Virus record (IMG/VR): IMGVR_UViG_3300010885_080481
Length of the DNA stretch: 64,000 bases
DNA from: a virus
Lineage: Duplodnaviria > Caudoviricetes
Reading direction: 5' to 3' (one strand)
Part shown: positions 104-61,873 of the stretch, one piece after another
How the letters are laid out: every line of letters starts with the position of its first letter
Numbering within the stretch: the first letter of the stretch is position 1
Position numbers and translations under genes: made by a program
Notes under the pieces: generated by a model
Databases searched by the model: none
What the model was told of the DNA's origin: nothing
The model's input: the letters and a program-made list of their open reading frames with translations, nothing else

Positions 104-148
104 CACTGAGCAGTGCAAAGTTCTACCTCGAAAGGATATACTAGGACC

Positions 149-469
149 ATGAACATCGTCGAGTACGTCTCCGGTCTCCGCAAGTACCGCATCACCCTCG
201 TCCCCGGTGCCTACGTCGTCGTCGAGGCCTTCAAGGATGACCAGTTCGTCTCGATGAAGAGGTTTGAGGTGGGGGACGAGGTGGAGTACGACTCCTTCAA
301 CCTGAGCTACACAGGCCTCATCATGGCGATCGGCAAGAAGACGGTCACCGTGGAGACCTCTTTCAGGGGAAACAAGCGCCTCAAGGCCGAGGAGTTCGGC
401 TGGCGGAACTGGGACTTCAATGCTGCTGAGACCGCACGACGCAACGCAGAAACGTCGCAATCTATCTGA
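149..469 (+). CDS. early hypothetical protein (MNIVEYVSG...)
   Basis: ATG 36 nt after promoter copy 1; high GC3. The ORF-track start at 113 is the promoter GTG. Confidence 0.8.
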   Translation: MNIVEYVSGLRKYRITLVPGAYVVVEAFKDDQFVSMKRFEVGDEVEYDSFNLSYTGLIMAIGKKTVTVETSFRGNKRLKAEEFGWRNWDFNAAETARRNAETSQSI

Positions 470-510
470 GGGCTGTGCAAAGTTCGGACCCGAAAGGGTA
501 TACTAGAACC

Positions 511-675
511 ATGGAAACGGTCTTCGCCAAGGTCCCCCAGCACCTCTACCTCTTCCGGTCCGCCTGCGGGACCAAGTTCATCGACCGGGACGGTCGGGGC
601 TGGAAGCTCCACACCCCGACCCTCGGGAAGTGGACCTACTTCCCCACCTTCAAGGCCTGCCTCACGGCGGCCTGA
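511..675 (+). CDS. early hypothetical protein (METVFAKVP...)
   Basis: ATG after promoter copy 2. Confidence 0.75.
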   Translation: METVFAKVPQHLYLFRSACGTKFIDRDGRGWKLHTPTLGKWTYFPTFKACLTAA

Positions 676-726
676 AAAGTCGCGGAGGCGGTGCAAAGTC
701 AACCCTAAAAGAGGTAAGGTAGAACC

Positions 727-1452
727 ATGCCGATCATCAAGACGAGCTACGACGCCAACGTCGGCCCCGAGACCCTCTTCCGTGGTCGGGTGCTCAAGAT
801 CGAGAAGACCACGGAGACCCGCAACTGGTCGGACACGTTGGACTACAGCGACCACCGCTCCACGGAGTGCACCTGGGCCCTCGTCTACCTCGGGACCCAC
901 GGCGTGCCGCCCCGCGGTTGGAACGGCCGGGTGATCGCCCACATCAAGGACCCGTTCTGGGAGACGCCCCGGGACCTGACGGTCGACGAGCGGTTCGCCT
1001 GGATGGACTGCACCAACCTCTTTGGGGACCGGCACGGTTACCTGCTCAAGGCCGAGGTCGACACGGTGGGCGACCTTCTCATCGCCGGTGGCACGGAGAA
1101 CATCTACGACCAGCTCGCCGCCTGGGAGGCCCACCACAAGGCCGCCCTCGAGGCCCGAGTCGCGGAGCATGCCGCAAAGGAGGCCATCCGCCTCGCCGCC
1201 GAGAAGGCCGCGACCGAGAAGAATGCCGCCCGTGCTGCCAAGGCTGCCGAGAAGGATGCCGTCCTCAAGGCCGCCGCTGAAGGTCACCTTGCCCGGATCC
1301 CCACCAAGGGCACTCAGGTCACGGTGGATGGGTTCACAGGGAAGGTCTTCTGGATCGGGGTCTCCAAGTACCGTGGGTTCTGGTCCGCCCGGGCCGGCAT
1401 CAAGGACTCCAGGGGCAACGTGCAGTGGGTTCCGGCGGACCGGTTCTCCTGA
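727..1452 (+). CDS. early hypothetical protein with Ala/Lys/Glu coiled coil and SH3-like C-terminus
   Basis: 241 aa ORF after promoter copy 3; helical AEK-rich middle; beta-rich C-terminus GTQVTVDGFTGKVFWIG. Confidence 0.8.
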   Translation: MPIIKTSYDANVGPETLFRGRVLKIEKTTETRNWSDTLDYSDHRSTECTWALVYLGTHGVPPRGWNGRVIAHIKDPFWETPRDLTVDERFAWMDCTNLFGDRHGYLLKAEVDTVGDLLIAGGTENIYDQLAAWEAHHKAALEARVAEHAAKEAIRLAAEKAATEKNAARAAKAAEKDAVLKAAAEGHLARIPTKGTQVTVDGFTGKVFWIGVSKYRGFWSARAGIKDSRGNVQWVPADRFS

Positions 1453-1455
1453 CCT

Positions 1456-1536
1456 AGGATGACACAGGAGAGGCTTCCATAAATCCGGGAGGGGTAACCA
1501 AGGCCCGACTCCCCAAAGCCTCTCCTGGGTCATCCT
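1456..1536 (+). ncRNA. structured intergenic RNA element (21-bp stem with inner hairpin)
   Basis: 1456-1476 pairs with 1516-1536 at 20 of 21 positions; inner GGGAG/CTCCC and GGG/CCC stems. Confidence 0.55.
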
Positions 1537-1599
1537 CGAGACCTCGAAAAAGTTCACAGGACAGTGCAAAGTTCCACCTTGAAGTGATAAGTTAGAACC

Positions 1600-1689
1600 A
1601 TGGACAAGCACACCGCCTCGGACATCCTCGGAGCCCTCATCACGGTCGCCTCCACGGCCTTCGCCGGCTACTGGCTCCTCGCCCTCTGA
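1600..1689 (+). CDS. 29-aa membrane mini-protein (MDKHTASDILGALITVASTAFAGYWLLAL)
   Basis: ATG exactly 36 nt after promoter copy 4; hydrophobic; too short for the ORF track. Confidence 0.7.
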   Translation: MDKHTASDILGALITVASTAFAGYWLLAL

Positions 1690-1719
1690 CCCTTCACTCC
1701 CAACCACAAGGACGACACC

Positions 1720-1905
1720 ATGAACGACTCGATCACCATCAAGACCTGCAAGTGCGACGAGTGTGACCATACGGCACCTGGTGTGGAGTACACATCCCTC
1801 GGGTCCCCGGTTCTCTTCGTCTGCAAGCACTGCGAGCCCAAAGGGTTCGAGAAGCAGGCCCGACAGGATATCGATTCCTGGTTGGCCGGCGGTTCGTTCC
1901 GCTGA
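1720..1905 (+). CDS. small Cys-rich (putative Zn-binding) protein
   Basis: CKCDEC...CKHC motifs; AAGGA upstream. Confidence 0.7.
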   Translation: MNDSITIKTCKCDECDHTAPGVEYTSLGSPVLFVCKHCEPKGFEKQARQDIDSWLAGGSFR

Positions 1906-1946
1906 TCCCGGTGCAAAGTCAACCCTGAAAGAGTTAAGGTAGAACC

Positions 1947-2327
1947 ATGGCAACTCGCTCCTACATCGGCAAGCTCCTCAACGACGGCTCCATCACCGGC
2001 ATCTACTGCCACTTCGACGGTTACCCGGAGGGCGTCGGTGCCACCCTCAAGGAGCACTACACGGATCCGGTCAAGGTGGATGCCCTCCTCGCCCTCGGCT
2101 CCATCTCGTCCCTCGGGGCGGAGATCGGGGAACAACACGAGTTCGAGGATCGATCCCGCGACTGCGTCACGGCCTGCCACCGGGACCGTGGCGAACGCCT
2201 TGAGGCGCCGACCGTCTACCGGAACATCGACGAACTTCGCCGGAATGCCTTCAACGACCTCGGGGCTGAGTATGCCTACGTCTTCGTCAACGGGGAGTGG
2301 GCCACCACGGAGTTGGGTCCGGCGTGA
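1947..2327 (+). CDS. conserved phage hypothetical protein (YCHFDGYP family)
   Basis: After promoter copy 5; MxTRS.IG...IYCHxDGYPxGVG.xL..HY motif recognised as widespread in phage hypothetical proteins. Confidence 0.8.
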   Translation: MATRSYIGKLLNDGSITGIYCHFDGYPEGVGATLKEHYTDPVKVDALLALGSISSLGAEIGEQHEFEDRSRDCVTACHRDRGERLEAPTVYRNIDELRRNAFNDLGAEYAYVFVNGEWATTELGPA

Positions 2328-2557
2328 CCCTCGATGAGTTCCTCCGCAAGGCCCTGGAACCTCAACGTGCCACGAGACCGGGACAACGGTTCATCAACCT
2401 CCTCCACGAGGTGAAGCCCAGCCTCGCCTACAACCTGAAGAAGATCAACCTCGATCCGTACTACATGGATCAGCTCCTCCCCGCGGCCATCCAGTACGCC
2501 GTGGACAACTGGGACGCCTTCAGCCCAACCGACTACATCATAGGAGTCGATGAGTGA
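2324..2557 (+). CDS. hypothetical protein
   Basis: GTG start overlapping the upstream TGA (GTGA). Confidence 0.65.
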   Translation: MTLDEFLRKALEPQRATRPGQRFINLLHEVKPSLAYNLKKINLDPYYMDQLLPAAIQYAVDNWDAFSPTDYIIGVDE

Positions 2558-2621
2558 TGAAAGATACAAGAAATTCCCTCATCTAGTGCAAAGTTCAACC
2601 GGGAAGTGATAGGGTAGAACC

Positions 2622-2843
2622 ATGGGTTACGAATCGACCACGTACGAATGCCGGGGTTGCGGGCGATACGGTGACGGAACCTGGGTGTCCCTGCCACCTG
2701 AGTGGTCACGCATCGAGCGGATCGACGGGCCGAACAGCATCTGTCCTGCCTGTGTTCACGATCGTCTCGAGGATGTTCTCAAGGATCTTCGCGAGGACGG
2801 TTACGAGCACGCCCACGTGGTGCAAAGTTCAACCGAGAAGTGA
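2622..2843 (+). CDS. small Zn-ribbon-like protein
   Basis: After promoter copy 6; CRGC...CPAC; 3' end overlaps promoter copy 7. Confidence 0.75.
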   Translation: MGYESTTYECRGCGRYGDGTWVSLPPEWSRIERIDGPNSICPACVHDRLEDVLKDLREDGYEHAHVVQSSTEK

Positions 2844-2855
2844 TAGGGTAGAACC

Positions 2856-3059
2856 ATGAAGAAGACGATCCCCCATGCGATCCCCCAGAGGCCGTGGCAG
2901 TCCTACCCCGGCGAGAACTTCGACCGCACGACCACCATGGCCCTCCAGATCGCGGACGAAGCTCGGGCCAATGGGCGGGTCGAACCGGCCCACGGCTACT
3001 CCCGAGGAGACTGGGAGACGGCTGAAGAACGTCTCGTCCGCAGTGCAAAGTTCGCCTGA
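2856..3059 (+). CDS. early hypothetical protein
   Basis: After promoter copy 7. Confidence 0.75.
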   Translation: MKKTIPHAIPQRPWQSYPGENFDRTTTMALQIADEARANGRVEPAHGYSRGDWETAEERLVRSAKFA

Positions 3060-3078
3060 GAAAGGGTATATTAGGACC

Positions 3079-3336
3079 ATGAAGAACGACATCACGGTGG
3101 GCGACCTCGTCGAAGAGGTGGGCACGGACTCCGGTTGGTGGGTGGTGACCGAGGTCTTCCGGAACACCCACCGCAAGTACATCGTCTGCGAGGATGCGGC
3201 GGGGCGACCGGTTCGCATGGTGACCGAGGTCTTCCGAAACACCCTCCGCGAGGGGTTCGCGGCGAAGCTGGTCCTTAAGGATCGACCGGACTGCGTCACC
3301 TTCGTCCCCATCGACCGGTTGGCCAAGGTCGGCTGA
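3079..3336 (+). CDS. early hypothetical protein with internal VTEVFRNT duplication
   Basis: After promoter copy 8. Confidence 0.75.
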   Translation: MKNDITVGDLVEEVGTDSGWWVVTEVFRNTHRKYIVCEDAAGRPVRMVTEVFRNTLREGFAAKLVLKDRPDCVTFVPIDRLAKVG

Positions 3337-3389
3337 GAAAAGTTCTCCCGGCGGTGCAAAGTTCCCAGCAGAAAGGATATACTAAGACC

Positions 3390-3563
3390 ATGAAGCTCAC
3401 CAAGAAGCAGGTCCTCGAGATGTTCCGCGAGTTCTGGACCGGGCACCCCGGTTCGTGGACGGAGAGCGAGAGGCGGGAAGCCTGGAACGACTTCACGGAT
3501 ATGTTGTGCAAGGATCGGCAGATCACGGAACGCCAGTACGAGACCTGGGCCAACCCGTTCTGA
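3390..3563 (+). CDS. early hypothetical protein (MKLTKKQV...W.NPF)
   Basis: After promoter copy 9. Confidence 0.75.
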   Translation: MKLTKKQVLEMFREFWTGHPGSWTESERREAWNDFTDMLCKDRQITERQYETWANPF

Positions 3564-3626
3564 GCCGGGGACAAAAAGTTCCCCAGCCCGGTGCAAAGTT
3601 CCCAGCAGAAAGTGTATACTGAGACC

Positions 3627-3854
3627 ATGAAGAACGCACGCTTCAACGAGGAGATGGCGATCATCAACGGCCGCGGCACCTGGAGCGCCGACGGCTCCAC
3701 CCTCACCCTGGAGAACGGGCGGATCCTCACGAAGGACGAGCAGTGGTCGGAGCGTGACCGCCTCCTGTCCGCCCGTCTGGCGAAGCCTGCCAAGCCGACC
3801 TCCCCTGCGGTCAAGCGGGAACGAGCCCGTCGGATGGCAACCGGCTGGTACTGA
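3627..3854 (+). CDS. early hypothetical protein
   Basis: After promoter copy 10. Confidence 0.75.
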   Translation: MKNARFNEEMAIINGRGTWSADGSTLTLENGRILTKDEQWSERDRLLSARLAKPAKPTSPAVKRERARRMATGWY

Positions 3855-3920
3855 GCCGGGGGACGAAAAAAGATCCTCCAGCCCGTGCAAAGTTCAACCT
3901 CGAAAGGGTATACTAGGACC

Positions 3921-4097
3921 ATGAAGACCACGGTAGAGGTAGTCCAGGCCCGCGATGTTCTCCGGCTCACCTTATCCCTCGAGGAAGCCAAGCGGATCCG
4001 TGCGGCCCTCTCGGACCTGGACGGGGAAGACTTAGACGCCTATGGCGGGATCCTTGAGGTCCTGCGGAAGGCCATTCCCCAACAATGGGCTCGGTGA
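3921..4097 (+). CDS. early hypothetical protein
   Basis: After promoter copy 11. Confidence 0.75.
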   Translation: MKTTVEVVQARDVLRLTLSLEEAKRIRAALSDLDGEDLDAYGGILEVLRKAIPQQWAR

Positions 4098-4150
4098 GAG
4101 CAGTTCTCCCGGCGGTGCAAAGTTCAACGAGGAAAGGATATACTAGGACC

Positions 4151-4327
4151 ATGAAGAACGAAGCCATCTACGAGATCGCGTACTTCACCCCCAAGGGCAA
4201 GCCCGGCCGGAAGCAGGTCCGCCAGTCGCGAATCGTCAAGGAAGCTCAGAAGCTGTACGACGCCGGGTACCACGGCATCCAGGTCTCCTACTACCCACTG
4301 ATCGCCGGCGTCGATCCGATCATCTGA
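4151..4327 (+). CDS. early hypothetical protein
   Basis: After promoter copy 12. Confidence 0.75.
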   Translation: MKNEAIYEIAYFTPKGKPGRKQVRQSRIVKEAQKLYDAGYHGIQVSYYPLIAGVDPII

Positions 4328-4369
4328 CCTGCGGTGCAAAGTTCAACCTCGAAAGGATATACTAGGACC

Positions 4370-4729
4370 ATGAAGAACCCCGGCAAGTACGAGTCGACTC
4401 TCGCCACCACCCTCAAGTCCCTAGGTCTCGACCACCGCGCGGAGGACCCCAACTTCCTGGAACTCCGCGAGGCGGCCTACAAGATCGACGACCTCCGTGC
4501 TGAACTGGAAGGTTGCTCCCGGCGTCGCGCGGACCGACTCACGTCCTTCGCCAATGATGTGGCCTCGGGCCGGATCCACATGACACCCCCGACGGGCAGC
4601 TCCCTCGTCGATGACATCGCGGAGAAGACCACCATCCTCAACGAGAAGTCCTCATCCTTCCCCACCCTCCTCCGCCTCGTCGCCGGACCAACCGCACCGA
4701 AGGAGTTCTTCGCGATCCTCCGCACCTGA
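4370..4729 (+). CDS. early hypothetical protein
   Basis: After promoter copy 13. Confidence 0.75.
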   Translation: MKNPGKYESTLATTLKSLGLDHRAEDPNFLELREAAYKIDDLRAELEGCSRRRADRLTSFANDVASGRIHMTPPTGSSLVDDIAEKTTILNEKSSSFPTLLRLVAGPTAPKEFFAILRT

Positions 4730-4760: not shown

Positions 4761-4781
4761 GGAGGATGATATATATCCTCC
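4761..4781 (+). promoter_or_regulatory. hairpin sequestering the translation start region, with late-promoter-like loop
   Basis: GGAGGAT-GATATAT-ATCCTCC ends immediately before ATG 4782. Confidence 0.55.
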
Positions 4782-5069
4782 ATGAAGCTAACACGCCGCC
4801 ACCTCCGCACCATCATCGATGAGGTCATCACAGAGGATCTCAAGAACGTTCGCAGCAGCCACGAGAAGACCATCGCCGGCACAACCGCGCTCCGCAAGAT
4901 GCACGACGCCCCCGGCGTTCTCGATGCGCTATCGAAAATCACTGACCCCAAAGAACTGGCTCAGGTCATAGAAGCCATCATCGACGCAGTTCCCATGGTC
5001 AAACGCGGAGACGTCCTAGCGGCTCTGGCGAAGGTGACACGTCATGAACGCACCACACACAGGTTCTAA
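4782..5069 (+). CDS. hypothetical protein with capsid-targeting-like N-terminus
   Basis: MKLTRRHLRTIIDEVITED leader shared with several late genes. Confidence 0.75.
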   Translation: MKLTRRHLRTIIDEVITEDLKNVRSSHEKTIAGTTALRKMHDAPGVLDALSKITDPKELAQVIEAIIDAVPMVKRGDVLAALAKVTRHERTTHRF

Positions 5070-7300: not shown

Positions 7301-8128
7301 ATGAATTCCGAACCCCAAGGATTGAGAGAACGCTCTCGAGATCTCGCCGGAGACGGCGATGCAATGGGTTACTATTTAAACTCGTTAAAGAAGCATCAAC
7401 AGCTTAATCATGAACAGATGGTTGAGTTGTTCAAAATCTTAGAGGAAGGTGGGCCTACCTCTTCTAAGGTGAGGAATAAGCTGGTTGAAACCAACTTGAG
7501 ATTGGTCGTTTACGTTGCAAAACAATATAAACGACACAACATGCCTCTTGAAGACATTATTCAAGAGGGAAATTTGGGATTGATGAAGGCGATCGAGAAG
7601 TTCGACTGGCGGAAAGGTTTTAGATTTTCCACTTACGCCACTTGGTGGGTTCGACAAGCGATCGGTCAGCATATTCTAAAGAGAAAGAGAATCATTCGTA
7701 TGTCGGCCCATGCTGTCAACACACAAAAAAAGTTGATGTCGGCGGCCGAAGAATACCGATCAACCATGGGTTGCGAGCCGAGCGTGGAGGAACTGAAGGA
7801 GCTGACAGGAACGTCAGATATGATCTTCAATGCCACGACGATCAGCGGTCGGGCAATCATTTCTCTGGATCAACCTCTTTCATCAGATCCAGATTCTGAC
7901 ACAATTGAGGATAAGATTGGCGCGGATCTATCAGAGGATCCTATGCAGATAGTTTCTTCAAGGGAACTGTTGGGCGTTGCGAAAGAAGTCATGGAGCAAT
8001 TATCACCAAAAGAAGCGGCAATTTTGAGGTTACGGTTTGGGTTGGTTGAAGACGTTTCTGCTGATGATTCTTATAACTTGACGCAGGAAGAGGTGGCTTC
8101 AATTGCAGAAGGTCATGGGTTAACATGA
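7301..8128 (+). CDS. sigma-70 family RNA polymerase sigma factor (RpoD/RpoS-like), region 4.2 truncated
   Basis: LVETNLRLVV, DIIQEGNLGLMKAIEKFD, GFRFSTYATWWVRQAI, ISLDQP, LSPKEAAILRLRFGL; ends before the RER.RQIE helix. Confidence 0.9.
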   Translation: MNSEPQGLRERSRDLAGDGDAMGYYLNSLKKHQQLNHEQMVELFKILEEGGPTSSKVRNKLVETNLRLVVYVAKQYKRHNMPLEDIIQEGNLGLMKAIEKFDWRKGFRFSTYATWWVRQAIGQHILKRKRIIRMSAHAVNTQKKLMSAAEEYRSTMGCEPSVEELKELTGTSDMIFNATTISGRAIISLDQPLSSDPDSDTIEDKIGADLSEDPMQIVSSRELLGVAKEVMEQLSPKEAAILRLRFGLVEDVSADDSYNLTQEEVASIAEGHGLT

Positions 8129-9341: not shown

Positions 9342-10073
9342 ATGAACAAACGAACTATGTTATCTCAACGTAATGTTTACATGAGATTGGCGTTAGAGAA
9401 ATTTCTTAGTTCAAAATGTGTAGAGTACCTCGACAAAGAAGAATTGGCAAATTTAAACTCCGCATTTCTTTCTCTAACACCAGGAGAGAATATCCACGTT
9501 TTTAAATTGGAAGTCGTCTTTCCTTTAGAAAAAAAATCGATATTTCGGGGGATTGTTGCCGTTGTCAGTTTTGCGTGGAACGTAGCAAAAGAAAATGAAG
9601 TGGACAAACAAGGAAATCTTTGGTCGGTTTACGAATTTATGCCGACTCTTTCTCTTAAAGAGCGTTATTCTCTTTCAGGGGAAATACTGAAATATTGGGT
9701 AGAATGTATCTCTAGCATCTTACATCTTTTAGATGATATAAAATCGTTAAATATTCCTCGTAAAGTCAAAGAAATGACGTGCACCAATGAGGAACGATTA
9801 AGAATCGAGTTGCAAAAAAAATATGAAGAATCTTGTGCGGCTTTATCAAGATATTTTCGAACTTCAGAAGGAAAAAAGTTAAGATTAAATTTAAGGAAAA
9901 AAGGTAAACAAAAAAAAATACCTCTCAAGTTTATATCTGAATTTTTGTTAGATAGTTCACGCAAAAAATACGAATTTAAAGTTCGAGAGAATGACTCTTC
10001 TTATTTCAGCAAGTATAGAAGATATTCTATCTTAGTCGAAAATGACTGCGCCTTAATAAGAAGAGAAGAGTGA
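9342..10073 (+). CDS. hypothetical protein
   Basis: 243 aa ORF, AT-rich. Confidence 0.65.
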   Translation: MNKRTMLSQRNVYMRLALEKFLSSKCVEYLDKEELANLNSAFLSLTPGENIHVFKLEVVFPLEKKSIFRGIVAVVSFAWNVAKENEVDKQGNLWSVYEFMPTLSLKERYSLSGEILKYWVECISSILHLLDDIKSLNIPRKVKEMTCTNEERLRIELQKKYEESCAALSRYFRTSEGKKLRLNLRKKGKQKKIPLKFISEFLLDSSRKKYEFKVRENDSSYFSKYRRYSILVENDCALIRREE

Positions 10074-10105
10074 AATGTCTAAATTTTGTTTGTTATAATA
10101 ACAAC

Positions 10106-11461
10106 ATGTCAACAGTAATTGATGTCCTCGAAGCGCTCGAGTCTGATAATTCAAGAATCTTCAAAGAAGATCTTCTTGATAGGTGCAAAGGAAATTCTTT
10201 GCTCAAAAAAGTCTTTGTCGCGGCATTCGATCCGTATTCAAACTACTACGTCAAAAAATTTAAGTCATCCAAAAGTTTCAATAGAGTTGATGATGATGAT
10301 ACTGTCATCGAACGATTTCTGAACTTGATCGGACAAGAGCTAGCAACTCGAAAAATCACGGGTAATGATGCCAAGAGTGCCGTGGAACAGTTCTTTTTAG
10401 AACTAGATGAACGTCAAGCAAAGTGGTGCCAACGAATTCTTCTTAAGAATTTAAGATGTGGAGTTCAAGAAACGACCGTAAATAAGGTGTGGCCTGGTAC
10501 CATCAAGAAATTCACCGTTCAACTTGCGGATAGCCTTGAAACACATCACGATCCTAACGCAGGCATTCAAATTAAGGATCAAATCATTTATCCTGTCCGG
10601 GTTGAACCTAAGTTAGATGGGTTACGATGCATCGCTGTGAAGCTAGCTGGCGAAGTTACTCTGTTTACGCGTAGCGGATCAATACTAGAGACTCTACCTA
10701 AGATTAAGTCGATTTTGGAAAATGTAGGGTGGGATAATTTTGTTCTCGATGGAGAGATCATGGGATCTGACTGGAATGAGTCTGCGTCCGTTGTGATGTC
10801 TCACAAAAAGAACAAAGATGATTCCAACATGATCTTACACGTTTTTGACGCGATGCCTTTCGACGATTGGCGTGATCAAAACAATGAGATGTCTCTAGCT
10901 GACAGAGCCATTCTAGCCCATAAGTTGGTCGAACAGGTCGCTGACAAGTCCATTGCAATTGTCGAAGGTAAGGTTGTCAATGATCAGCATGCTCTTTTAG
11001 AGTTTTATTCTGCAAAGATGGAAGCAGGATACGAAGGCATTATGGTAAAGAAGTTGGATTCTAATTACGTTTTCAAACGCTCCAACTCAGTCCTCAAGCT
11101 TAAGCCAGTGTCTACCTACGAAGGAGTAGTGGTAGGAAACTACCTGGGAACTCGAGGTTCAAAGAGAGAGGGCATGTGGGCAGGATTTGAAGTTGTTTTG
11201 CCGAACGGCGTTGTGACGAGGGTCGGTGGTGGGTTCACCGACAAGATTAAGGCAGAGATCGGAATGAACCCCGCCGCATGGCTCGGCAAGGTGATTGAGA
11301 TGGAAGGTCAGCCAGATCCTGCTACAAAAAATGGACTAACCAAGGATGGCCGAATCAGGTTTCCTGTCTTTGTTAGAGAGAGATCAAAAGATGACGTTGA
11401 CGTAGTTGTATTAATCGCAGGAGAAAAGTTTATAAACAAAAATATTGAACAGTTTGTTTGA
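10106..11461 (+). CDS. lig: ATP-dependent DNA ligase (T4 gp30-like)
   Basis: EPKLDGLR (KxDG), FVLDGE, YEGIMVK, VLKLKP, OB-fold VGGGFTD, IRFPVF; start reassigned to ATG 10106 behind GTGAAA-N18-TATAAT-N6. Confidence 0.93.
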   Translation: MSTVIDVLEALESDNSRIFKEDLLDRCKGNSLLKKVFVAAFDPYSNYYVKKFKSSKSFNRVDDDDTVIERFLNLIGQELATRKITGNDAKSAVEQFFLELDERQAKWCQRILLKNLRCGVQETTVNKVWPGTIKKFTVQLADSLETHHDPNAGIQIKDQIIYPVRVEPKLDGLRCIAVKLAGEVTLFTRSGSILETLPKIKSILENVGWDNFVLDGEIMGSDWNESASVVMSHKKNKDDSNMILHVFDAMPFDDWRDQNNEMSLADRAILAHKLVEQVADKSIAIVEGKVVNDQHALLEFYSAKMEAGYEGIMVKKLDSNYVFKRSNSVLKLKPVSTYEGVVVGNYLGTRGSKREGMWAGFEVVLPNGVVTRVGGGFTDKIKAEIGMNPAAWLGKVIEMEGQPDPATKNGLTKDGRIRFPVFVRERSKDDVDVVVLIAGEKFINKNIEQFV

Positions 11462-11760: not shown

Positions 11761-11768
11761 TGAACATT

Positions 11769-11796
11769 TGAAGGTTATAAATTATTATAACCTTCA
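11769..11796. promoter_or_regulatory. 28-bp palindrome overlapping the putative tRNA promoter
   Basis: TGAAGGTTATAA-ATTA-TTATAACCTTCA; ATGAAC(11760)-N17-TATTAT(11783). Confidence 0.6.
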
Positions 11797-13870: not shown

Positions 13871-15250
13871 TTAAATAGGATTTTGGTTAATAATTCCTGA
13901 AATCCATGGTCCCGTATAAAATTCTTCAACTCTGCGTCTATCACCTTTGGCAACAGTAAAGGCGACGGCAGCTCCGGCAGATGAAGATGTAGTATTTGCA
14001 GATTGGTTGGGCACATCATTACCTGTCGTCGGGTCGAACCCTAAAATAGATCCGTCGGCTTTTACTCCTCCAAACCATCCTGTTTTAGTGTATCCATTAC
14101 CCATTACATACAACCAATTTGAATTACCGGGGGTTCCATCAGGCCATCCTCCTCGTTCGAGCGGTGTCTTTGGAGTATCTCCATGGACTGTGATGACTAC
14201 GTTGTCGGCAAGGGTCTTTCCTGAACATGTTGGATCGGGTGTTGCTGCAAGGTCATTCATGAACTCATCAAGGATGAGTCCTAGATGATTCACTGTGGCA
14301 AGTAGGGTTCCCATGTCAGCAAATGCTCCGTGAGGATCGTCTCGCATGACAGGAAGTGCCACGCAAGATGTGAGACCTAACTTGAAAGCCTTCGATGTGG
14401 TGATGAGAGTCTTTGCCAACTCACGTAGCTTATTAGGCGTAGAGTCTACAACGCCGTATCTCATTAGGTCATCTTGGGTTGGTTCCAAGAGTGCTGCCAG
14501 GTTTTTTCCAAGGAAGTTTGCACTCTTCTTTCCGATGTCTAGAGGACGTTGAACAGTTGGCCTAGTAGCAGCTGTATTTAGACCGAGGAATGTCTTGTAG
14601 TATGCCTCAAAGAGTTGTGCATCGCTCTCTACTTCGAGGATAGATCGGCTTGCGGCGCTGTTGAACAACTGAACCATGCCATCCGCGTTTCCTACCGTGG
14701 CAAGTTGAGGTGCACCAGGCGCAGTCCCGAATGCAAGAGGTGTAATGCCGATGACGGGAAGAAGCGTTGGATTTGCCCTTTGAACGGAAGAGCAAACTGC
14801 CAGCATGCTTTGACCTGCTCCTACCGACGCGGCAGATCCAGGTGTAGGTGTGTGGGTCTGGTTAGTACCTGCCATGAATGCAGAGATCCTCTTCAATTTA
14901 TCTCTTTTTGTCCACGGTGATTGTGGAACATGATACAATGTCTTATCGGTGTCTGTGGCTTTAAGCTGTTGTCCCTGGGCATGGAATGCGAAATTATTAT
15001 TGGTTGATGTGGCTACTTCATTGTGAGGCCATAATAACTGGAACCATGCGAATCCACCATCACCTGCCACGAGATGAACTGATCTCATTGTGGTTGAGCA
15101 TGAGGCCTCGTCCGCCATCGCAGAACCTGCAGAATCGCTAATAACATTTAACACTTGTGATCGATCGAGGGCCAGAGCTGCGCCTGCGGCTGCGGTCCAC
15201 TTTAGGAATCTTCTTCTTGATTGTCCACGTAGATCTTTTAGGTTTGACAT
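13871..15250 (-). CDS. Tat-exported DUF1501-like protein
   Basis: SRRRFLK twin-arginine signal; overall pattern (GG.AWF...RDDPHG...VHGDTPK) resembles bacterial DUF1501 proteins; start reassigned to ATG 15250. Confidence 0.7.
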   Translation of the reverse strand: MSNLKDLRGQSRRRFLKWTAAAGAALALDRSQVLNVISDSAGSAMADEASCSTTMRSVHLVAGDGGFAWFQLLWPHNEVATSTNNNFAFHAQGQQLKATDTDKTLYHVPQSPWTKRDKLKRISAFMAGTNQTHTPTPGSAASVGAGQSMLAVCSSVQRANPTLLPVIGITPLAFGTAPGAPQLATVGNADGMVQLFNSAASRSILEVESDAQLFEAYYKTFLGLNTAATRPTVQRPLDIGKKSANFLGKNLAALLEPTQDDLMRYGVVDSTPNKLRELAKTLITTSKAFKLGLTSCVALPVMRDDPHGAFADMGTLLATVNHLGLILDEFMNDLAATPDPTCSGKTLADNVVITVHGDTPKTPLERGGWPDGTPGNSNWLYVMGNGYTKTGWFGGVKADGSILGFDPTTGNDVPNQSANTTSSSAGAAVAFTVAKGDRRRVEEFYTGPWISGIINQNPI

Positions 15251-15260
15251 TGTTTTCCTT

Positions 15261-15989
15261 TCACTCGCAAGAATGTGCTGCGGATAGCAAAGTTGCGATT
15301 GCGATTGCTTGACCCTTTTCAGGAGTTGATGCATTAATGACCAAGTCAGTACAAATCGCAAGGTGTTGTTGCGTGGCAGGTTTTCCTAAGAGACACGTCA
15401 CACCAGCCTCCAAACACCAACCATTCTCATCAAAGATGGGTGCTCCGACGCCTGACTCCTGACACTGTGCCATAGATGGAAGTGCAGCAATGATTTCCGG
15501 TGCCGCTTGAACGAAGATGTCGAATTGCTTCGCTGCGCCTGAAGATGTCCATACTGTCGTCTCACCAACTCGTGCATCATAGACAGCAGCGCCCAACGGG
15601 CCTGTTCCGTCATTCAACAATTGTCCTGCTGTCGGAGGATCTCCTGTTGCTGATAGATTAACACCGAAATTTTCTAGAATATTTCGTAATGTCGCAACTG
15701 GAATCTTCTGACAGGAATGCAACCTCGTCCTGATCTCCGGCGGGCCCTCATCCTGACGTTGGGCGAGCACCTCCAAGGGATCCTTGTTTCCGTCTTCACC
15801 TAGTCCTGACATATGATCGAAAGTGTTGTCTTCGCTGCCCGTGTAATCGTCAGGAGGCGGAGGTTCCTCAGGTGGTGGGTCTGTTTTGGGATCTTCGACA
15901 GGTGGTAGGAGACCATCAGGTGTATCTAGACCGCAGGATAGGCTAAGGAAGGCCAATGGGAGGCTCAAGAATAATCTTTTGTAATTCAT
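15261..15989 (-). CDS. putative lipoprotein of DUF1501-like operon
   Basis: Signal peptide ending SLSC, Pro-rich linker, several Cys; AGGA upstream. Confidence 0.7.
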   Translation of the reverse strand: MNYKRLFLSLPLAFLSLSCGLDTPDGLLPPVEDPKTDPPPEEPPPPDDYTGSEDNTFDHMSGLGEDGNKDPLEVLAQRQDEGPPEIRTRLHSCQKIPVATLRNILENFGVNLSATGDPPTAGQLLNDGTGPLGAAVYDARVGETTVWTSSGAAKQFDIFVQAAPEIIAALPSMAQCQESGVGAPIFDENGWCLEAGVTCLLGKPATQQHLAICTDLVINASTPEKGQAIAIATLLSAAHSCE

Positions 15990-16006
15990 ATGATGTTTTT
16001 CCTGCT

Positions 16007-17179
16007 TCAAAAATTTACAAAATCATCGTGCTTCAACATGAAGCGGAGAGTCTCTTTCACATTCATCCCCGTGGACTCGAACTTTTCCACGAGGGGATCG
16101 AGGACTTCAGGAGGAACAGTGGCGAGATCGTTGACGACATCCTCCTTCGACATGACCATGTTCCACAGGCGAGTCGTGACGCAGTCAGCAATGATAGGAT
16201 CATCAGCAATTGCTGCGCCAAATGCTGGGAGATCATCAGCCTCGCTTCCAAAGCGCCATGCCGTCTTTTCGCCAGAAGAAAGCCAATGTTCTACTTCAGT
16301 CGTCACCGGTTCCGGAAGCACGGGTGTGCTCACTGAGCTCTCTCCCACCCACATGCCTTCGGCATCGAAGTTAGCGAATAGAGGAGCGATGTGGTTCATC
16401 GTCGCGTGACAGTTCGCACACACTACAGACTGTGTATCCCGGAAATTGATGGGAGAATCCGAGATAGATTCGAAAGGCCAAGGAGACACGTAATCCTTAC
16501 CGTCCACGACAGTGGGCTTATCAACTGACTCGGCGGGAAATTTCTGGCACGCAAAGACTTCCTGGACCCACCTGACCCGACGGAAGGCCATGTTGCTGTA
16601 GAAATGCTTCATCGTGCCTGGGTTGGTGAGGACCCCTGCGTGAACAGGTACAGCGTTTTCACACTCCCCGTCGACAAAGTCTCCATTCTCAAAGGTAGGA
16701 CACGTGTTCGTGGTGGCCGTGAACACATCGGTGAAAGGACTACCATTTACTGAGATTCTTGCGGCGAGGACGGGTGAATGATCCATCATCTCAGAACCGC
16801 CTTGACGCATCGTGTCGCGCCAAAATTTCACCATGCGAGCTTGAAATCGCGAATCATCAATCATTTCATCAACGATTGATTCATACTCTGATTTCTTATT
16901 TTGAGCATTCTGTAGCCTGCGAATAGTCTCTAAAGTAGGTAAAGTTCTAGTTAGCTTTAATGATGCAGTTCTTAGAGCTTCTTCATAGCTTAGTTTTCTA
17001 TCGTCTAGTGTGGTTTTTTCAGGGGCTTCGCCTCCTGAACCAGCACCTGAAGAAGTCGTGTTGTCGGTTGATGAAGATCCTTGTCCTGAAGAGTTATGTT
17101 CGTTTAATCCTTCAGGAGTTGAAGCGCAACCAACTCCGCATAAGATAAGAATCGTTAAGATTTTTTTTGACATCACCAT
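16007..17179 (-). CDS. putative heme-c-binding lipoprotein (DUF1549/DUF1585-1592-like)
   Basis: Signal ending GVGC, S/G linker, CANCH (CxxCH) motif, GVLT.PG, C-terminal L...F...G.NVKE..R. Confidence 0.7.
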   Translation of the reverse strand: MVMSKKILTILILCGVGCASTPEGLNEHNSSGQGSSSTDNTTSSGAGSGGEAPEKTTLDDRKLSYEEALRTASLKLTRTLPTLETIRRLQNAQNKKSEYESIVDEMIDDSRFQARMVKFWRDTMRQGGSEMMDHSPVLAARISVNGSPFTDVFTATTNTCPTFENGDFVDGECENAVPVHAGVLTNPGTMKHFYSNMAFRRVRWVQEVFACQKFPAESVDKPTVVDGKDYVSPWPFESISDSPINFRDTQSVVCANCHATMNHIAPLFANFDAEGMWVGESSVSTPVLPEPVTTEVEHWLSSGEKTAWRFGSEADDLPAFGAAIADDPIIADCVTTRLWNMVMSKEDVVNDLATVPPEVLDPLVEKFESTGMNVKETLRFMLKHDDFVNF

Positions 17180-38017: not shown

Positions 38018-38050
38018 TTGTAATAAATTAATGTTTTTAGTAAGAGGTGT

Positions 38051-39034
38051 TCAAAGTTTAAAGCTGGTGGTCATCGCTTTTGATAACTTATTAATAAATA
38101 AATCATTCCAGCTGAGTGGTCTGGCTTCTGATAGTGCAGTAACAAATTCTGACTTATTCATGCTACCAGGATCTCCCCATGGTCTAACATCCACAACGAT
38201 AACGTCAATGTCATATTCTTGTAACTTCTTTACAATCTTAGGCGTCTTTTTGTTCCACATGTCTCCATCAAGTGCTAAGGCTATCGGCGTGTTATACAAC
38301 AAAATCTTATTAAAGATTTCGTGACGTTCATCTAGGTCTGATCCCAGGATTGCGGTAGAGTTATCAGGACATTTTACAAGATCAAATGCTCCCTCGACCA
38401 GAACAAGACGTTTTTTCCAATCAACATTTATTTCATTAAAAATGATAGGATTTTTATCAACGTCTGGATTATCGTACTTAGGTTTTTTATCTTTGTCTAT
38501 AGCTCTGGCTACGAAGTAGTTCAGATTTCCTGATTCATCGAATGACGGCATGATGATTCTGCGTTTCCATCTAGGTTCATCAGAAACTCCTAATTTAAAG
38601 TACCAAGCATCTCGTTCATTTAATCCTCTAGAATAGAGGTAACGCCAAGCTGCCTTTATATCAGGATCCATTTCATTTGCTAACGTAATCAGCTTAAAGT
38701 CTTTAGGTAGTTCTAATTTAAGCGGTTCTTCTTTCTGTCCTGTGACGAGTTGAGAAACGTCGCCGAAAAAACCAAATAGTTCCTTAAAAATAGAAAGATG
38801 AGTTTGCGTTCCAAACTTTCTTATGAGAGGAATTATAGATCTTGCTTTCCATCCACAAACCCAGCAGTGATTTGCTGAGGTGTCTGTTCGAATAGAGAGT
38901 TTCTTTTTTGTTAGATCAGTTGGAGCGCATATGGGGCAACGAACATCAAAGTTGATACCGTTGGACGATATGCGTCCTTTACCAAAAATGGATTCAAAAA
39001 AATTTATGCTATCAGAGACCGAACGAATGGCCAC
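38051..39034 (-). CDS. DNA primase (DnaG/gp61-like)
   Basis: CPIC...HCWVCG Zn finger, RIIMP, YFVAR, VLVEGAFD and ALDGD TOPRIM motifs. Confidence 0.9.
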   Translation of the reverse strand: MAIRSVSDSINFFESIFGKGRISSNGINFDVRCPICAPTDLTKKKLSIRTDTSANHCWVCGWKARSIIPLIRKFGTQTHLSIFKELFGFFGDVSQLVTGQKEEPLKLELPKDFKLITLANEMDPDIKAAWRYLYSRGLNERDAWYFKLGVSDEPRWKRRIIMPSFDESGNLNYFVARAIDKDKKPKYDNPDVDKNPIIFNEINVDWKKRLVLVEGAFDLVKCPDNSTAILGSDLDERHEIFNKILLYNTPIALALDGDMWNKKTPKIVKKLQEYDIDVIVVDVRPWGDPGSMNKSEFVTALSEARPLSWNDLFINKLSKAMTTSFKL

Positions 39035-39066
39035 AGAGTCATCGTAACACTAAAATATTGAATTGT

Positions 39067-39657
39067 TCACATGAGGCTCGCTGCTCGGGCGATAACATAT
39101 GCGTCTGTAGCATCTCGACTCCAATCGACAGGTTCTCCATTTTTCTTTTTTGGCCAATCGACGTGTCCCAAATCATTTTCTGACATGTATTTAAAAACTT
39201 GTTCTTTACCAGACATACCAGCTTTTGCGGTTTTTTGCATCTTTATTCCGCATAATTTTCTAGCTGAAGCAGATGAAATGTACTCAGGATCAACACCAAA
39301 AATTTCTCTTGAAATGTAAGAAACAATTCCATTAAATCTCATTAGAGTTGTGATAGTTGCAGCTGAGGACATACCTGTTCTGAAACCCATCAGGGGTTCT
39401 TCTAACGCTACTCGATATGTTCCTGGATATTTTTTGGATAGACCTCTTAACTCTAAGTTTGTTAGGTCTGCTTTTTCCCAAAAAGTTTTACACTTCTTGA
39501 ATTCGATACGATCGAGGTGAAGGATTTGAGACCCTCTATCATCAGGCGTGATTTCTGAATTGAGTATACAGATTCCTGTGACAGACGTGGAAACATCCAA
39601 TCCAAAAATTATTTTTGACACATCACAAATTATTGCATGAGAAATTTTAGTAAACAA
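39067..39657 (-). CDS. RuvC-like Holliday junction resolvase
   Basis: IFGLDVSTSVTGIC, VALEEP, D.TDAYVIA; true start possibly GTG 39621. Confidence 0.8.
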   Translation of the reverse strand: MFTKISHAIICDVSKIIFGLDVSTSVTGICILNSEITPDDRGSQILHLDRIEFKKCKTFWEKADLTNLELRGLSKKYPGTYRVALEEPLMGFRTGMSSAATITTLMRFNGIVSYISREIFGVDPEYISSASARKLCGIKMQKTAKAGMSGKEQVFKYMSENDLGHVDWPKKKNGEPVDWSRDATDAYVIARAASLM

Positions 39658-55521: not shown

Positions 55522-55583
55522 ATTGATATTCAACAATCTTGTTTGAACAATGTAACTTTTTTGCCTAAAGTATAAACAAATTA

Positions 55584-55841
55584 ATGAAGAAAAGTTTACC
55601 AATTTTAAACGAAGCAAACAAATGTTTTGAAGTGCATGCTGCTTATAAGGTCTGTTGCCAAAAAAAATCTTGCAAAAATTACATAGAAAATGCATCAACA
55701 CAAAATTGTGTGATTATTGCAGCTCAAAAAGGACCTCACACACTTCAAAATATCGGTAAGATATACGGATTAACTAGAATGAGAATATGCCAAATTGAAA
55801 AGAATATCATTCAAAAATTGAAGAATTCTATAGACATCTAA
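55584..55841 (+). CDS. stand-alone sigma-70 region 4.2-like HTH protein
   Basis: HTLQNIGKIYGLTRMRICQIEK..IQKL, plus Cys-rich N-terminus. Confidence 0.78.
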   Translation: MKKSLPILNEANKCFEVHAAYKVCCQKKSCKNYIENASTQNCVIIAAQKGPHTLQNIGKIYGLTRMRICQIEKNIIQKLKNSIDI

Positions 55842-61212: not shown

Positions 61213-61243
61213 CTATATATCATAGATCAATTCTTATAAATGT

Positions 61244-61873
61244 TCAAAATACTTTAAATTGATTCATGATATAAGCATGAAATATCTTACCAAGTACGCC
61301 GAATAAAGCTGTACCTAAAGTCAAGGCGAGCCATTTAATAGCTCCAGCCTGTCTTTCGTACCACTTTTGAAGTTCTTTTAAAACTTCAGCGTGCTCTCTT
61401 AGTATTTTTTCAACATCAGCTTCTTCTATTTCTTCTTTTTCAGCAAGCTTATCTTTACTTTCTTTCCAACTTTTTATATATTTTATTTCTTCTTCTAAGT
61501 TTTCTACTCTTTCAACTTCTGCAGTTTGATTTTCTACGTTTTTTATTCTTGCGTATAATCCGCTATCAGGATCATAAAGTACATCTCTTATATCATCGAC
61601 TTTTTCTACTAATTTTTCTTGAGATTGTTCTATTTTTTCTATCTTATACATCAAAGTAGAAAAGCCACCATTCATCGCCGGAGCTGATAGGATCCTATTT
61701 TGCATTTCAGCAATTTGCTTACGATTATGTTCTAAAGCTGCTAACGCTGCTTTAGATTCCGGTGCAGAATCAATGATTTCTTTTTTGTCCTTGCGAGGAC
61801 GACTTCTTTTTTCTGAAACAACAGAAACTTTTTTTTCAGTCGTTTTTTTAGTAGGCATATACATCCTCATCAA
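61244..61873 (-). CDS. coiled-coil protein with C-terminal TM helix
   Basis: Coiled coil followed by WLALTLGTALFGVLG. Confidence 0.7.
   Translation of the reverse strand: MMRMYMPTKKTTEKKVSVVSEKRSRPRKDKKEIIDSAPESKAALAALEHNRKQIAEMQNRILSAPAMNGGFSTLMYKIEKIEQSQEKLVEKVDDIRDVLYDPDSGLYARIKNVENQTAEVERVENLEEEIKYIKSWKESKDKLAEKEEIEEADVEKILREHAEVLKELQKWYERQAGAIKWLALTLGTALFGVLGKIFHAYIMNQFKVF

Follow-up and report, generated by a model that had tools for sequence, protein, structure and literature searches.

An array of 36-nt modules in a freshwater T4-like phage

The DNA analysed here, called the window throughout, is a stretch of 64,000 nucleotides (nt) from the IMG/VR virus record IMGVR_UViG_3300010885_080481 (Duplodnaviria; Caudoviricetes). 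At its left end lies an array of small genes, each opened by the same 36-nt module. A sequence-only reading of this DNA had claimed 13 near-identical modules with a fixed distance of 36 nt from a conserved box to the start codon, and this was confirmed for all 13. An exact search of the whole window found the box, GTGCAAAGT, 13 times, without exception on the plus strand and between positions 113 and 4342; each box is the beginning of a module (Table 1), and the cassettes behind the modules were labelled A to M in window order for comparison with relatives. In every copy the sequence TAnnnT begins 15 nt after the box (module positions 25-30), (A/G)(G/A)(G/A)ACC occupies positions 31-36, and an ATG stands at positions 37-39, 36 nt from the first G of the box. 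The open reading frames (ORFs) opened by these ATGs encode 29-241 amino acids (aa).

For an exact 9-mer, about 0.49 copies are expected by chance on both strands of 64 kb, against 13 seen. When the box, 15 nt of spacer and TAnnnT were sought together with up to two mismatches, 16 matches were obtained compared with 6.6 +/- 2.6 in shuffled sequences, and no shuffle reached 16. Boxes with one mismatch occurred elsewhere in the window only at chance level (n = 10). The repeat and its geometry are real and well above chance. An open frame ends at position 103, 9 nt before the first box; the array therefore continues past the left edge of the window, which cuts it.

The module in related phages carries a promoter signature

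Scanning IMG/VR with the pattern gave 55 loci, spread over about 25 related contigs, of which several are 211-298 kb long. In whole-record scans the large contigs carried 10-29 exact sites each for the box plus TAnnnT (the -10 element), clustered and consistent in strand, and in three genomes a minus-strand and a plus-strand array diverge from one point. Arrays were located at 197.7-210.9 kb in genome G001, 207-212.7 kb in G002, about 59.8 kb in G003, about 105 kb in G004 and about 37.2 kb in G005. In two large relatives they lie at contig ends, probably because assembly breaks in this hypervariable repeat region.

The window was pooled with 64 loci of relatives, which gave 277 unique boxes. 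An ATG stood at +36 from the box in 244 of the 277; it was shifted by -1, +1 or +2 in 12, and neither applied to the remaining 21. GTG was found at +36 three times and TTG never. In a sequence logo of this set, where the box letters are fixed by the search itself, box position 10 was a pyrimidine (Y). Counted from the predicted start, G-14 was present in 93% of copies and T-12, A-11 and T-7 in 98-99%, with variable positions between them; TATACT was the commonest -10 element. The discriminator showed A-3 (84%), C-2 (80%) and C-1 (94%), followed by A+1 (100%). Such a pattern, in which a pyrimidine at -1 adjoins a purine at +1, is typical of an extended -10 promoter and not of a ribosome-binding site.

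A search made independently of the box (G-N-TAnnnT-N6-ATG followed by an ORF) returned 280 sites, of which 259 carry the box with at most three mismatches. The variants recovered follow GTG(C/T)AA(A/T)(G/C)T, occasionally with TTGCAA or TTGTAA. The box is best read as a putative -35-type hexamer, GTGCAA, set 18 nt from the -10 element and extended by three more conserved bases. In about a quarter of the copies the box is preceded by AAAAG(TT) at a constant -16/-17, equivalent to -53/-52 relative to the predicted start; an UP-like element would be expected there.

Evidence for a probable leaderless start

We propose that in each 36-bp unit a sigma70-family promoter runs straight into a start codon. 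Its parts would be the -35-position box GTGCAAAGT(Y), an extended -10 element (G at -14, TAnnnT) and a 6-nt discriminator, A-R-R-A-C-C, which ends in C at -1 and puts the predicted +1 on the A of ATG. RNA polymerase would begin at the AUG itself; the mRNA would be leaderless, and its first cistron would be translated without a Shine-Dalgarno (SD) sequence, presumably by 70S-type initiation. Comparison among relatives supports this reading well, and we consider it probable. The leaderless promoter array of the sequence-only reading has gained an invariant geometry over about 250 copies and an alternative, SD-leadered form; its start site is a predicted one.

First, the distance from the -10 element to the ATG is kept over the roughly 250 copies, which are otherwise divergent. 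Second, 16 of the 21 boxes that have no ATG near +36 are followed by a gene with a canonical SD (AAGGA, AGGAG or GAGG) placed 5-11 nt before a start codon that lies 15-40 nt downstream. By the same definition of a leadered copy (within +37 to +80, an SD and a start that opens an ORF of 30 aa or more), only 5 of the 244 sites with leaderless geometry qualify (Fisher p = 2e-17). The leadered copies sit ahead of AAA_5 and KaiC/RecA-like ATPases. One promoter thus has two kinds of sequel, an AUG at +1 or an ordinary SD leader, and this is hard to explain unless transcription starts as predicted; the box and the -10 element appear to form a promoter that is used in a leaderless or a leadered fashion. 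Third, the cassette genes have the traits of leaderless genes: the SD is absent from nearly all, the start is AUG and the 5' end is little structured, the first 36 nt from the AUG folding at -3.8 kcal/mol compared with -8.1 to -8.4 inside ORFs (p = 9e-30). Codons 2-7 of the cassette ORFs are A-rich. The host ribosome does read the SD: the capsid gene and other late genes have GGAG at normal spacing, and the second genes of cassettes have SDs as well.

Several observations weigh against a leaderless promoter. A promoter scan based on the E. coli consensus did not call the array sites, since their -35 position matches TTGACA at 3/6 only. TAnnnT at 6 nt from the start codon was not enriched on the non-array genes of the window. 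Finally, the -10 variants TAAGGT and TAGGAT, with cores 6-8 nt from the AUG, and the AGGA at -6 to -3 are SD-like, and translation of read-through RNA could be SD-assisted.

This last point is the core of an alternative in which the repeat would serve chiefly in translation and not as a promoter, as a signal or start-associated sequence of a polycistronic RNA, TAAGGT/TAGGAT or AGGA acting as a non-standard ribosome-binding site. The close packing of cassettes without terminators (see below) fits it as well, since read-through RNA must exist. We nevertheless consider it very unlikely. The invariant letters are T, A and T of TAnnnT and G-14, whereas the positions of a would-be SD core vary freely, and the commonest -10 element, TATACT, has no SD complementarity. 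The leadered copies place box and -10 element well ahead of genes that have a canonical SD of their own. AGGA itself, 2 nt from the AUG, is too close for SD pairing; we take it to resemble the GGGA discriminator element, which is reportedly contacted by sigma region 1.2, and this likeness would explain its conservation without an SD role.

The box could also encode a conserved N-terminal peptide (VQSS...) translated from a GTG 12 codons upstream of the ATG. This GTG shares the reading frame of the ATG, with no stop between the two in 6 of the 13 window copies; a stop closes the frame in 145 of the 244 pooled copies, the 36-mer lacks codon periodicity, and third-position G+C periodicity starts at the ATG. 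On account of the in-frame stops a coding box was rejected, and we give it practically no credence.

For the module read as a leaderless promoter, the sequence-only reading had suggested an advantage when SD-led translation fails. This idea is weakened by the phage's own capsid gene, late genes and second genes of cassettes, which use GGAG or AAGGA. Early expression for host takeover, also part of that reading, found no support; as to the timing of the array, we lean towards prereplicative.

The cassettes of the array

The coordinates of modules, cassettes and related features are collected in Table 1.

Table 1. Modules and associated features of the window; each module starts with the first letter of its box.
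Feature	Position (strand)	Description
Module 1, cassette A	113..148 (+)	box 113-121, -10 TATACT 137-142, ATG 149; ORF 149-469, 106 aa
Module 2, cassette B	475..510 (+)	ORF 511-675, 54 aa
Module 3, cassette C	691..726 (+)	-10 TAAGGT; ORF 727-1452, 241 aa; family of 9 members
Long hairpin	1456..1537 (+)	after cassette C; conserved GGGGTAACCAAGGCC loop; -53 kcal/mol, z -4.2
Module 4, cassette D	1564..1599 (+)	ORF 1600-1689, 29-aa hydrophobic mini-protein, then second ORF
Module 5, cassette E	1911..1946 (+)	ORF 1947-2327, 126 aa, phrog_1987, then coupled second ORF
Module 6, cassette F	2586..2621 (+)	ORF 2622-2843, 73 aa; final codons extend into module 7
Module 7, cassette G	2820..2855 (+)	1 nt different from module 6; ORF 2856-3059, 67 aa, unrelated to F
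Module 8, cassette H	3043..3078 (+)	ORF 3079-3336, 85 aa
Module 9, cassette I	3354..3389 (+)	ORF 3390-3563, 57 aa, phrog_336
Module 10, cassette J	3591..3626 (+)	ORF 3627-3854, 75 aa; missing in a variant (joint 3572->3861)
Module 11, cassette K	3885..3920 (+)	ORF 3921-4097, 58 aa; 89% nt and 95% aa identity to L039
Module 12, cassette L	4115..4150 (+)	ORF 4151-4327, 58 aa; 91% nt and 97% aa identity to L011
Module 13, cassette M	4334..4369 (+)	ORF 4370-4729, 119 aa; last cassette
Degenerate copy	10070..10108 (+)	GTGAAATGT-N15-TATAAT-N6-ATG, ahead of ATP-dependent DNA ligase

The 13 first-cistron proteins are mutually unrelated, and 10 of them have no Pfam or PHROG match; C (weakly and in part), E and I match PHROG families of unknown function, the homologs of E and I being mostly from T4-like cyanophages and Caulobacter jumbo phages. 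Homologs of 11 of the 13 are present in relatives; those of cassette A, for instance, are in loci L008 (83% aa identity) and L046. The array ORFs have an in-frame G+C content at third codon positions (GC3) of 0.85, and K and L are more similar to their relatives in amino acid than in nucleotide sequence. Together with the PHROG matches of E and I, these features identify the array ORFs as real coding genes. Cassette M adjoins a conserved UvdE-sigma block, in relatives as in the window.

The arrangement of one gene per promoter, as first described, holds for 11 of the 13 cassettes; D and E each contain a second, promoterless gene. In D this is an SD-led ORF of 61 aa (1720-1905; AAGGA, 7-nt spacing), and in E it runs from a GTG at 2324 to 2557, with a GTGA stop-start overlap and GGAG.

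Long ORFs also lie on the minus strand across several cassettes, at 307-1953 (548 aa) and 2829-3890 (353 aa); they are by-products of the GC3-rich coding on the plus strand. These spurious antisense ORFs, and the in-frame GTG inside boxes taken as a start, are likely traps for gene callers.

The degenerate copy is one of the three extra matches to box-N15-TAnnnT with up to two mismatches, and its ATG falls 6 nt past TATAAT. The true start of the ligase is probably the ATG at 10106 and not the GTG at 10070. The palindrome GGAGGAT-GATATAT-ATCCTCC at 4761-4784 is a further site: it includes TGaTATATA, and 6 nt beyond that comes the ATG of an ORF at 4782-5069. This is a leaderless geometry without a box, inside a hairpin.

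Transcription units and a conserved hairpin element

Among 181 consecutive promoter pairs, the upstream ORF overlaps the next box in 16, ends 0-9 nt before it in 60 and 10-24 nt before it in 31, so that 107 of the 181 cassette junctions overlap or leave less than 25 nt. A terminator scan found no intrinsic terminator inside the array. Given this packing and the lack of terminators, nested transcripts are expected, each of which would be efficiently translated mainly for its own 5'-terminal gene. 'One gene, one promoter' should accordingly be understood as translation of the 5'-terminal cistron, not as isolated transcription units.

The longer spacers (25-120 nt) are strongly structured, with a mean z of -3.2 for the 29 that were folded. 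The long hairpin after cassette C is a candidate terminator or attenuator of the array. Five further copies of this element of about 95 nt, with the GGGGTAACCAAGGCC loop and stems that vary in sequence, were found in relatives (L004:4098-4217, L005:2162-2281, L008:11841-11960, L023:5699-5818 and L042:1109-1228), always 68-70 nt ahead of the next box. It has no Rfam match, and RNAalifold gave modest covariation only, on a poor alignment. The segment 5215-5325 was considered as a terminator of the array and rejected, as it is no more structured than shuffled sequences.

Cassettes are reordered between related phages

It had been proposed that the shared 36-mer acts as a recombination joint for the shuffling of cassettes, a proposal at odds with an identical cassette order in all relatives. 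The order differs. In L008 it is A, C, H, M with many other cassettes between them; in L011, C and D (separated by one further cassette) are followed at a distance by L, K, M; in L023, C, E are followed by H and then by B, with others in between; and in L017, L precedes E. M is usually the last among relatives.

Neighbouring promoters can be nearly identical in front of unrelated ORFs: of 27 variable positions, F and G differ at 1, I and J at 3, L and M at 3, and K and L at 4. Adjacent promoters are more alike than non-adjacent ones of the same array (0/2000 permutations).

Contigs from other freshwater samples were also placed on the array at 90% identity or more. Deletions of J (Table 1), of J-K-L (3581->4331) and of L (4109->4332) were seen in contigs of other lakes, as were the new adjacencies K-J, J-H, K-B, I-E and D-A. 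Boxes begin 2-20 nt after these junctions, which contain novel linkers of 3-33 nt, some with a GAAAAAGTTC tract. A caution applies to the joints: with k = 31 contigs matched at 90% identity, promoter repeats can generate a junction or shift it, so that single joints may be artefacts; the overall joint pattern agrees with the comparison of loci. The order differences, the near-identical promoters before unrelated ORFs and the joints upstream of boxes all fit the 36-mer as a putative recombination joint and lend support to that proposal. The unit would mark the border between modules, where related phages gain, lose and reorder small genes that are unrelated to one another, presumably by recombination.

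Which sigma factor reads the box

The array had been described as a set of sigma70 promoters. The bipartite geometry of the sigma70 family and the extended -10 element fit this description; the host sigma as the reader is less secure, as the box is not a canonical -35 element and the phage has sigma parts of its own. A sigma gene at 7301-8128 encodes regions 2, 3 and 4.1 and stops just before the -35 recognition helix (region 4.2), and its counterparts in six relatives (54-92% identity) stop at that residue too. The ORF behind it is not the missing region 4.2 piece, as it encodes a small membrane protein. A stand-alone protein of 85 aa, encoded at 55584-55841, has four conserved Cys and a complete region 4.2 helix-turn-helix, whose helix GLTRMRICQIEK is invariant in 38 relatives (49-77% identity). 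The two proteins are candidates for a two-piece sigma.

In relatives, canonical-like promoters (TTGAACA or TTATACA, N17, TAAAnT) are found upstream of the sigma-4-only gene. In the window the class TGAACA-N16-18-TAnnnT is marginally enriched (17 matches vs 9.0 +/- 3.2). Sites of this class at 11761-11788, 38025-38053(-), 39041-39069(-), 55544-55571 and 61219-61246(-) lie ahead of tRNA-Glu, replication genes and the sigma-4-only gene. With the sigma parts and the canonical-like promoters, a cascade is conceivable in which phage factors assist in reading the array.

The leaderless output of the array would be unchanged if GTGCAAAGT were read not by the host primary sigma but by a phage factor, for which the truncated sigma and the Cys4/region-4.2 protein are the candidates; that would make the array a middle-type class controlled by the phage. 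Such a reader is suggested by a box of 9-10 nt that is nearly invariant and unlike TTGACA, by the canonical-like promoters at other sites of the phage (in relatives also ahead of the sigma-4-only gene), and by the shared truncation point and the invariant helix. Helix and box are both invariant, however, hence there is no covariation to read between them, and the contigs that have the sigma-4 gene and few boxes are incomplete. The variants TTGCAA and TTGTAA resemble ordinary -35 hexamers, the array lies upstream of the sigma gene in the same direction, and arrays of small ORFans in T4-type phages are typically early genes of the host sigma (PMC2839356). We regard a middle-type class under phage control as possible rather than probable. 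The more specific proposal, that GTGCAAAGT is the cognate -35-type site of a two-piece sigma made of the truncated sigma and a zinc-ribbon-like region 4.2 protein with a non-canonical helix (TRMRICQIE), is more tentative still. On the question of the reader taken by itself, the host sigma alone is modestly favoured, a phage factor is a less probable though serious candidate, and other explanations share the small remainder.

If the two-piece sigma were true, the phage would have a private expression channel for its shuffling small genes, with its own promoter specificity and with neither a 5' untranslated region (UTR) nor an SD; the genes served by this channel would have a GC3 of 0.85, opposite to the rest of the genome (about 0.25).

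The phage and its genome

The source is an uncultured freshwater T4-like jumbo myophage. DNA of the window is found in freshwater and lake metagenomes, and the window encodes a T4-type major capsid protein (gp23), a portal (gp20) and a terminase, as well as UvdE, a sigma factor, a ligase, PhoH and helicases. No GenBank phage has a capsid protein that reaches 50% identity to this one, the nearest being those of uncultured huge phages, Flavobacterium phage immuto and Microcystis phage Mel-JY01; at the DNA level no useful match, near or distant, was found among GenBank phages. An Rfam search of the whole window returned one tRNA only.

The G+C content falls from 60% in the array to 30-40% across the rest of the window. 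A concatenation artefact was ruled out as the cause of this jump, since several related contigs are collinear across the boundary, and relatives have the same jump, with arrays of 55-65% G+C beside flanks of 40-45%. Outside the array, GC3 is 0.22-0.34 in the late structural genes (25340-53092) and 0.58 in the major capsid gene. The genome has two codon regimes, which may reflect adaptation of highly or early expressed genes to the tRNA pool of a GC-rich host. This split in codon usage and the split sigma parts, present in the same phages, suggest a layered expression programme.

A motif scan of 185,579 species genomes directed at the host returned only short, evidently mis-binned phage contigs in freshwater metagenome-assembled genomes of unrelated phyla, and psbA is absent from the five relatives examined. 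A minus-strand block at 13871-17179, with a G+C content of about 49%, holds genes for a Tat-signal DUF1501-like protein and for a PSCyt2/PSCyt3 (DUF1549/DUF1588) protein. These bacterial envelope-type genes are a possible clue to the host; an Atlas look-up of the Tat/DUF1501-like gene gave a vague pointer to Myxococcota and Bdellovibrionota.

Comparison with known systems

A literature search for the 9-mer of the box returned primers only and found no paper describing the motif. Unlike the cassettes of integrons, which are promoterless and have attC sites beside an integrase, each cassette here has its own promoter and the repeat is no imperfect palindrome; Pfam scans of the flanking genes found no integrase. 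The start-associated sequences of Cluster K mycobacteriophages are likewise short repeats fixed relative to the start codons of a subset of genes. They overlap the ribosome-binding site and are thought to be translational, whereas here the promoter positions are conserved and an SD, where there is one, can lie well downstream of the repeat.

T4 middle promoters (a MotA box with a sigma70 -10 element, AsiA remodelling sigma region 4) also have a conserved box of 9-10 nt that replaces the canonical -35 element at a fixed distance from the -10 element, and in both systems phage-encoded proteins could replace or mimic sigma region 4. The boxes differ (GTGCAAAGT here, TGCTTtA at -30 for MotA), and T4 middle mRNAs are leadered. 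MotA and AsiA (PF09114, PF09010) had no match in five relatives (G001-G004, G009), nor in the control genomes, so that their absence is only weakly shown.

Leaderless transcription has precedents. The lambda cI mRNA made from pRM is leaderless. Leaderless mRNAs are also described for mycobacteria and their phages, and Thermus phage phiYS40 reportedly makes leaderless transcripts of the middle and late classes. In Deinococcus-Thermus, a -10 box adjoining the ORF gives leaderless mRNA (PMC12340547). Shared with such units are TAnnnT 6-7 nt before the AUG, the lack of an SD and the requirement for AUG; elsewhere the genes are scattered, whereas here near-identical 36-bp modules, each with the invariant -35-position box, are lined up in arrays. 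Those units belong to host lineages known to favour leaderless mRNAs, whereas the host of this phage clearly reads the SD. Maps of transcription start sites in the jumbo phages phiKZ and AR9 show no leaderless transcripts (PMC8244752, PMC5312081).

The closest known system is that of the promoter-early stem-loop (PeSL) cassettes of T4-type phages, in which a repeated strong early promoter, a stem-loop terminator and an SD precede ORFans; through these cassettes ORFans are exchanged and mini-circles formed (Arbiol et al. 2010, PMC2839356; Comeau et al. 2014, PMC4122927). The present array is a variant of that kind, predicted to be leaderless. Both belong to T4-like myoviruses, both have conserved promoter repeats, here of a putative sigma70 type, directly before small ORFans clustered in variable regions, and the repeats mark points of ORFan insertion, deletion and swap between relatives in PeSL phages and probably here. 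The placement in a variable region applies here too: gp23, gp20 and the T4-type terminase are in the window, and the content of the array differs among relatives. In contrast to PeSLs, the promoter here abuts the ATG and leaves no 5' UTR, an SD being restricted to the minority leadered form; most cassettes have no stem-loop terminator, their junctions being mostly overlapping or very short; and the -35 box is not E. coli-like.

If the leaderless reading is true, the PeSL idea of exchangeable ORFan cassettes bounded by promoters extends to a minimal form in T4-type phages, in which one 36-bp module supplies both the transcription and the translation start, and a recombined ORF would be expressed without a ribosome-binding site of its own. 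A whole class of leaderless promoters would then exist in a phage whose other genes use ordinary SDs, and the roughly 250 natural variants, with their leadered sister form, would provide a ready data set on what makes a leaderless promoter work.

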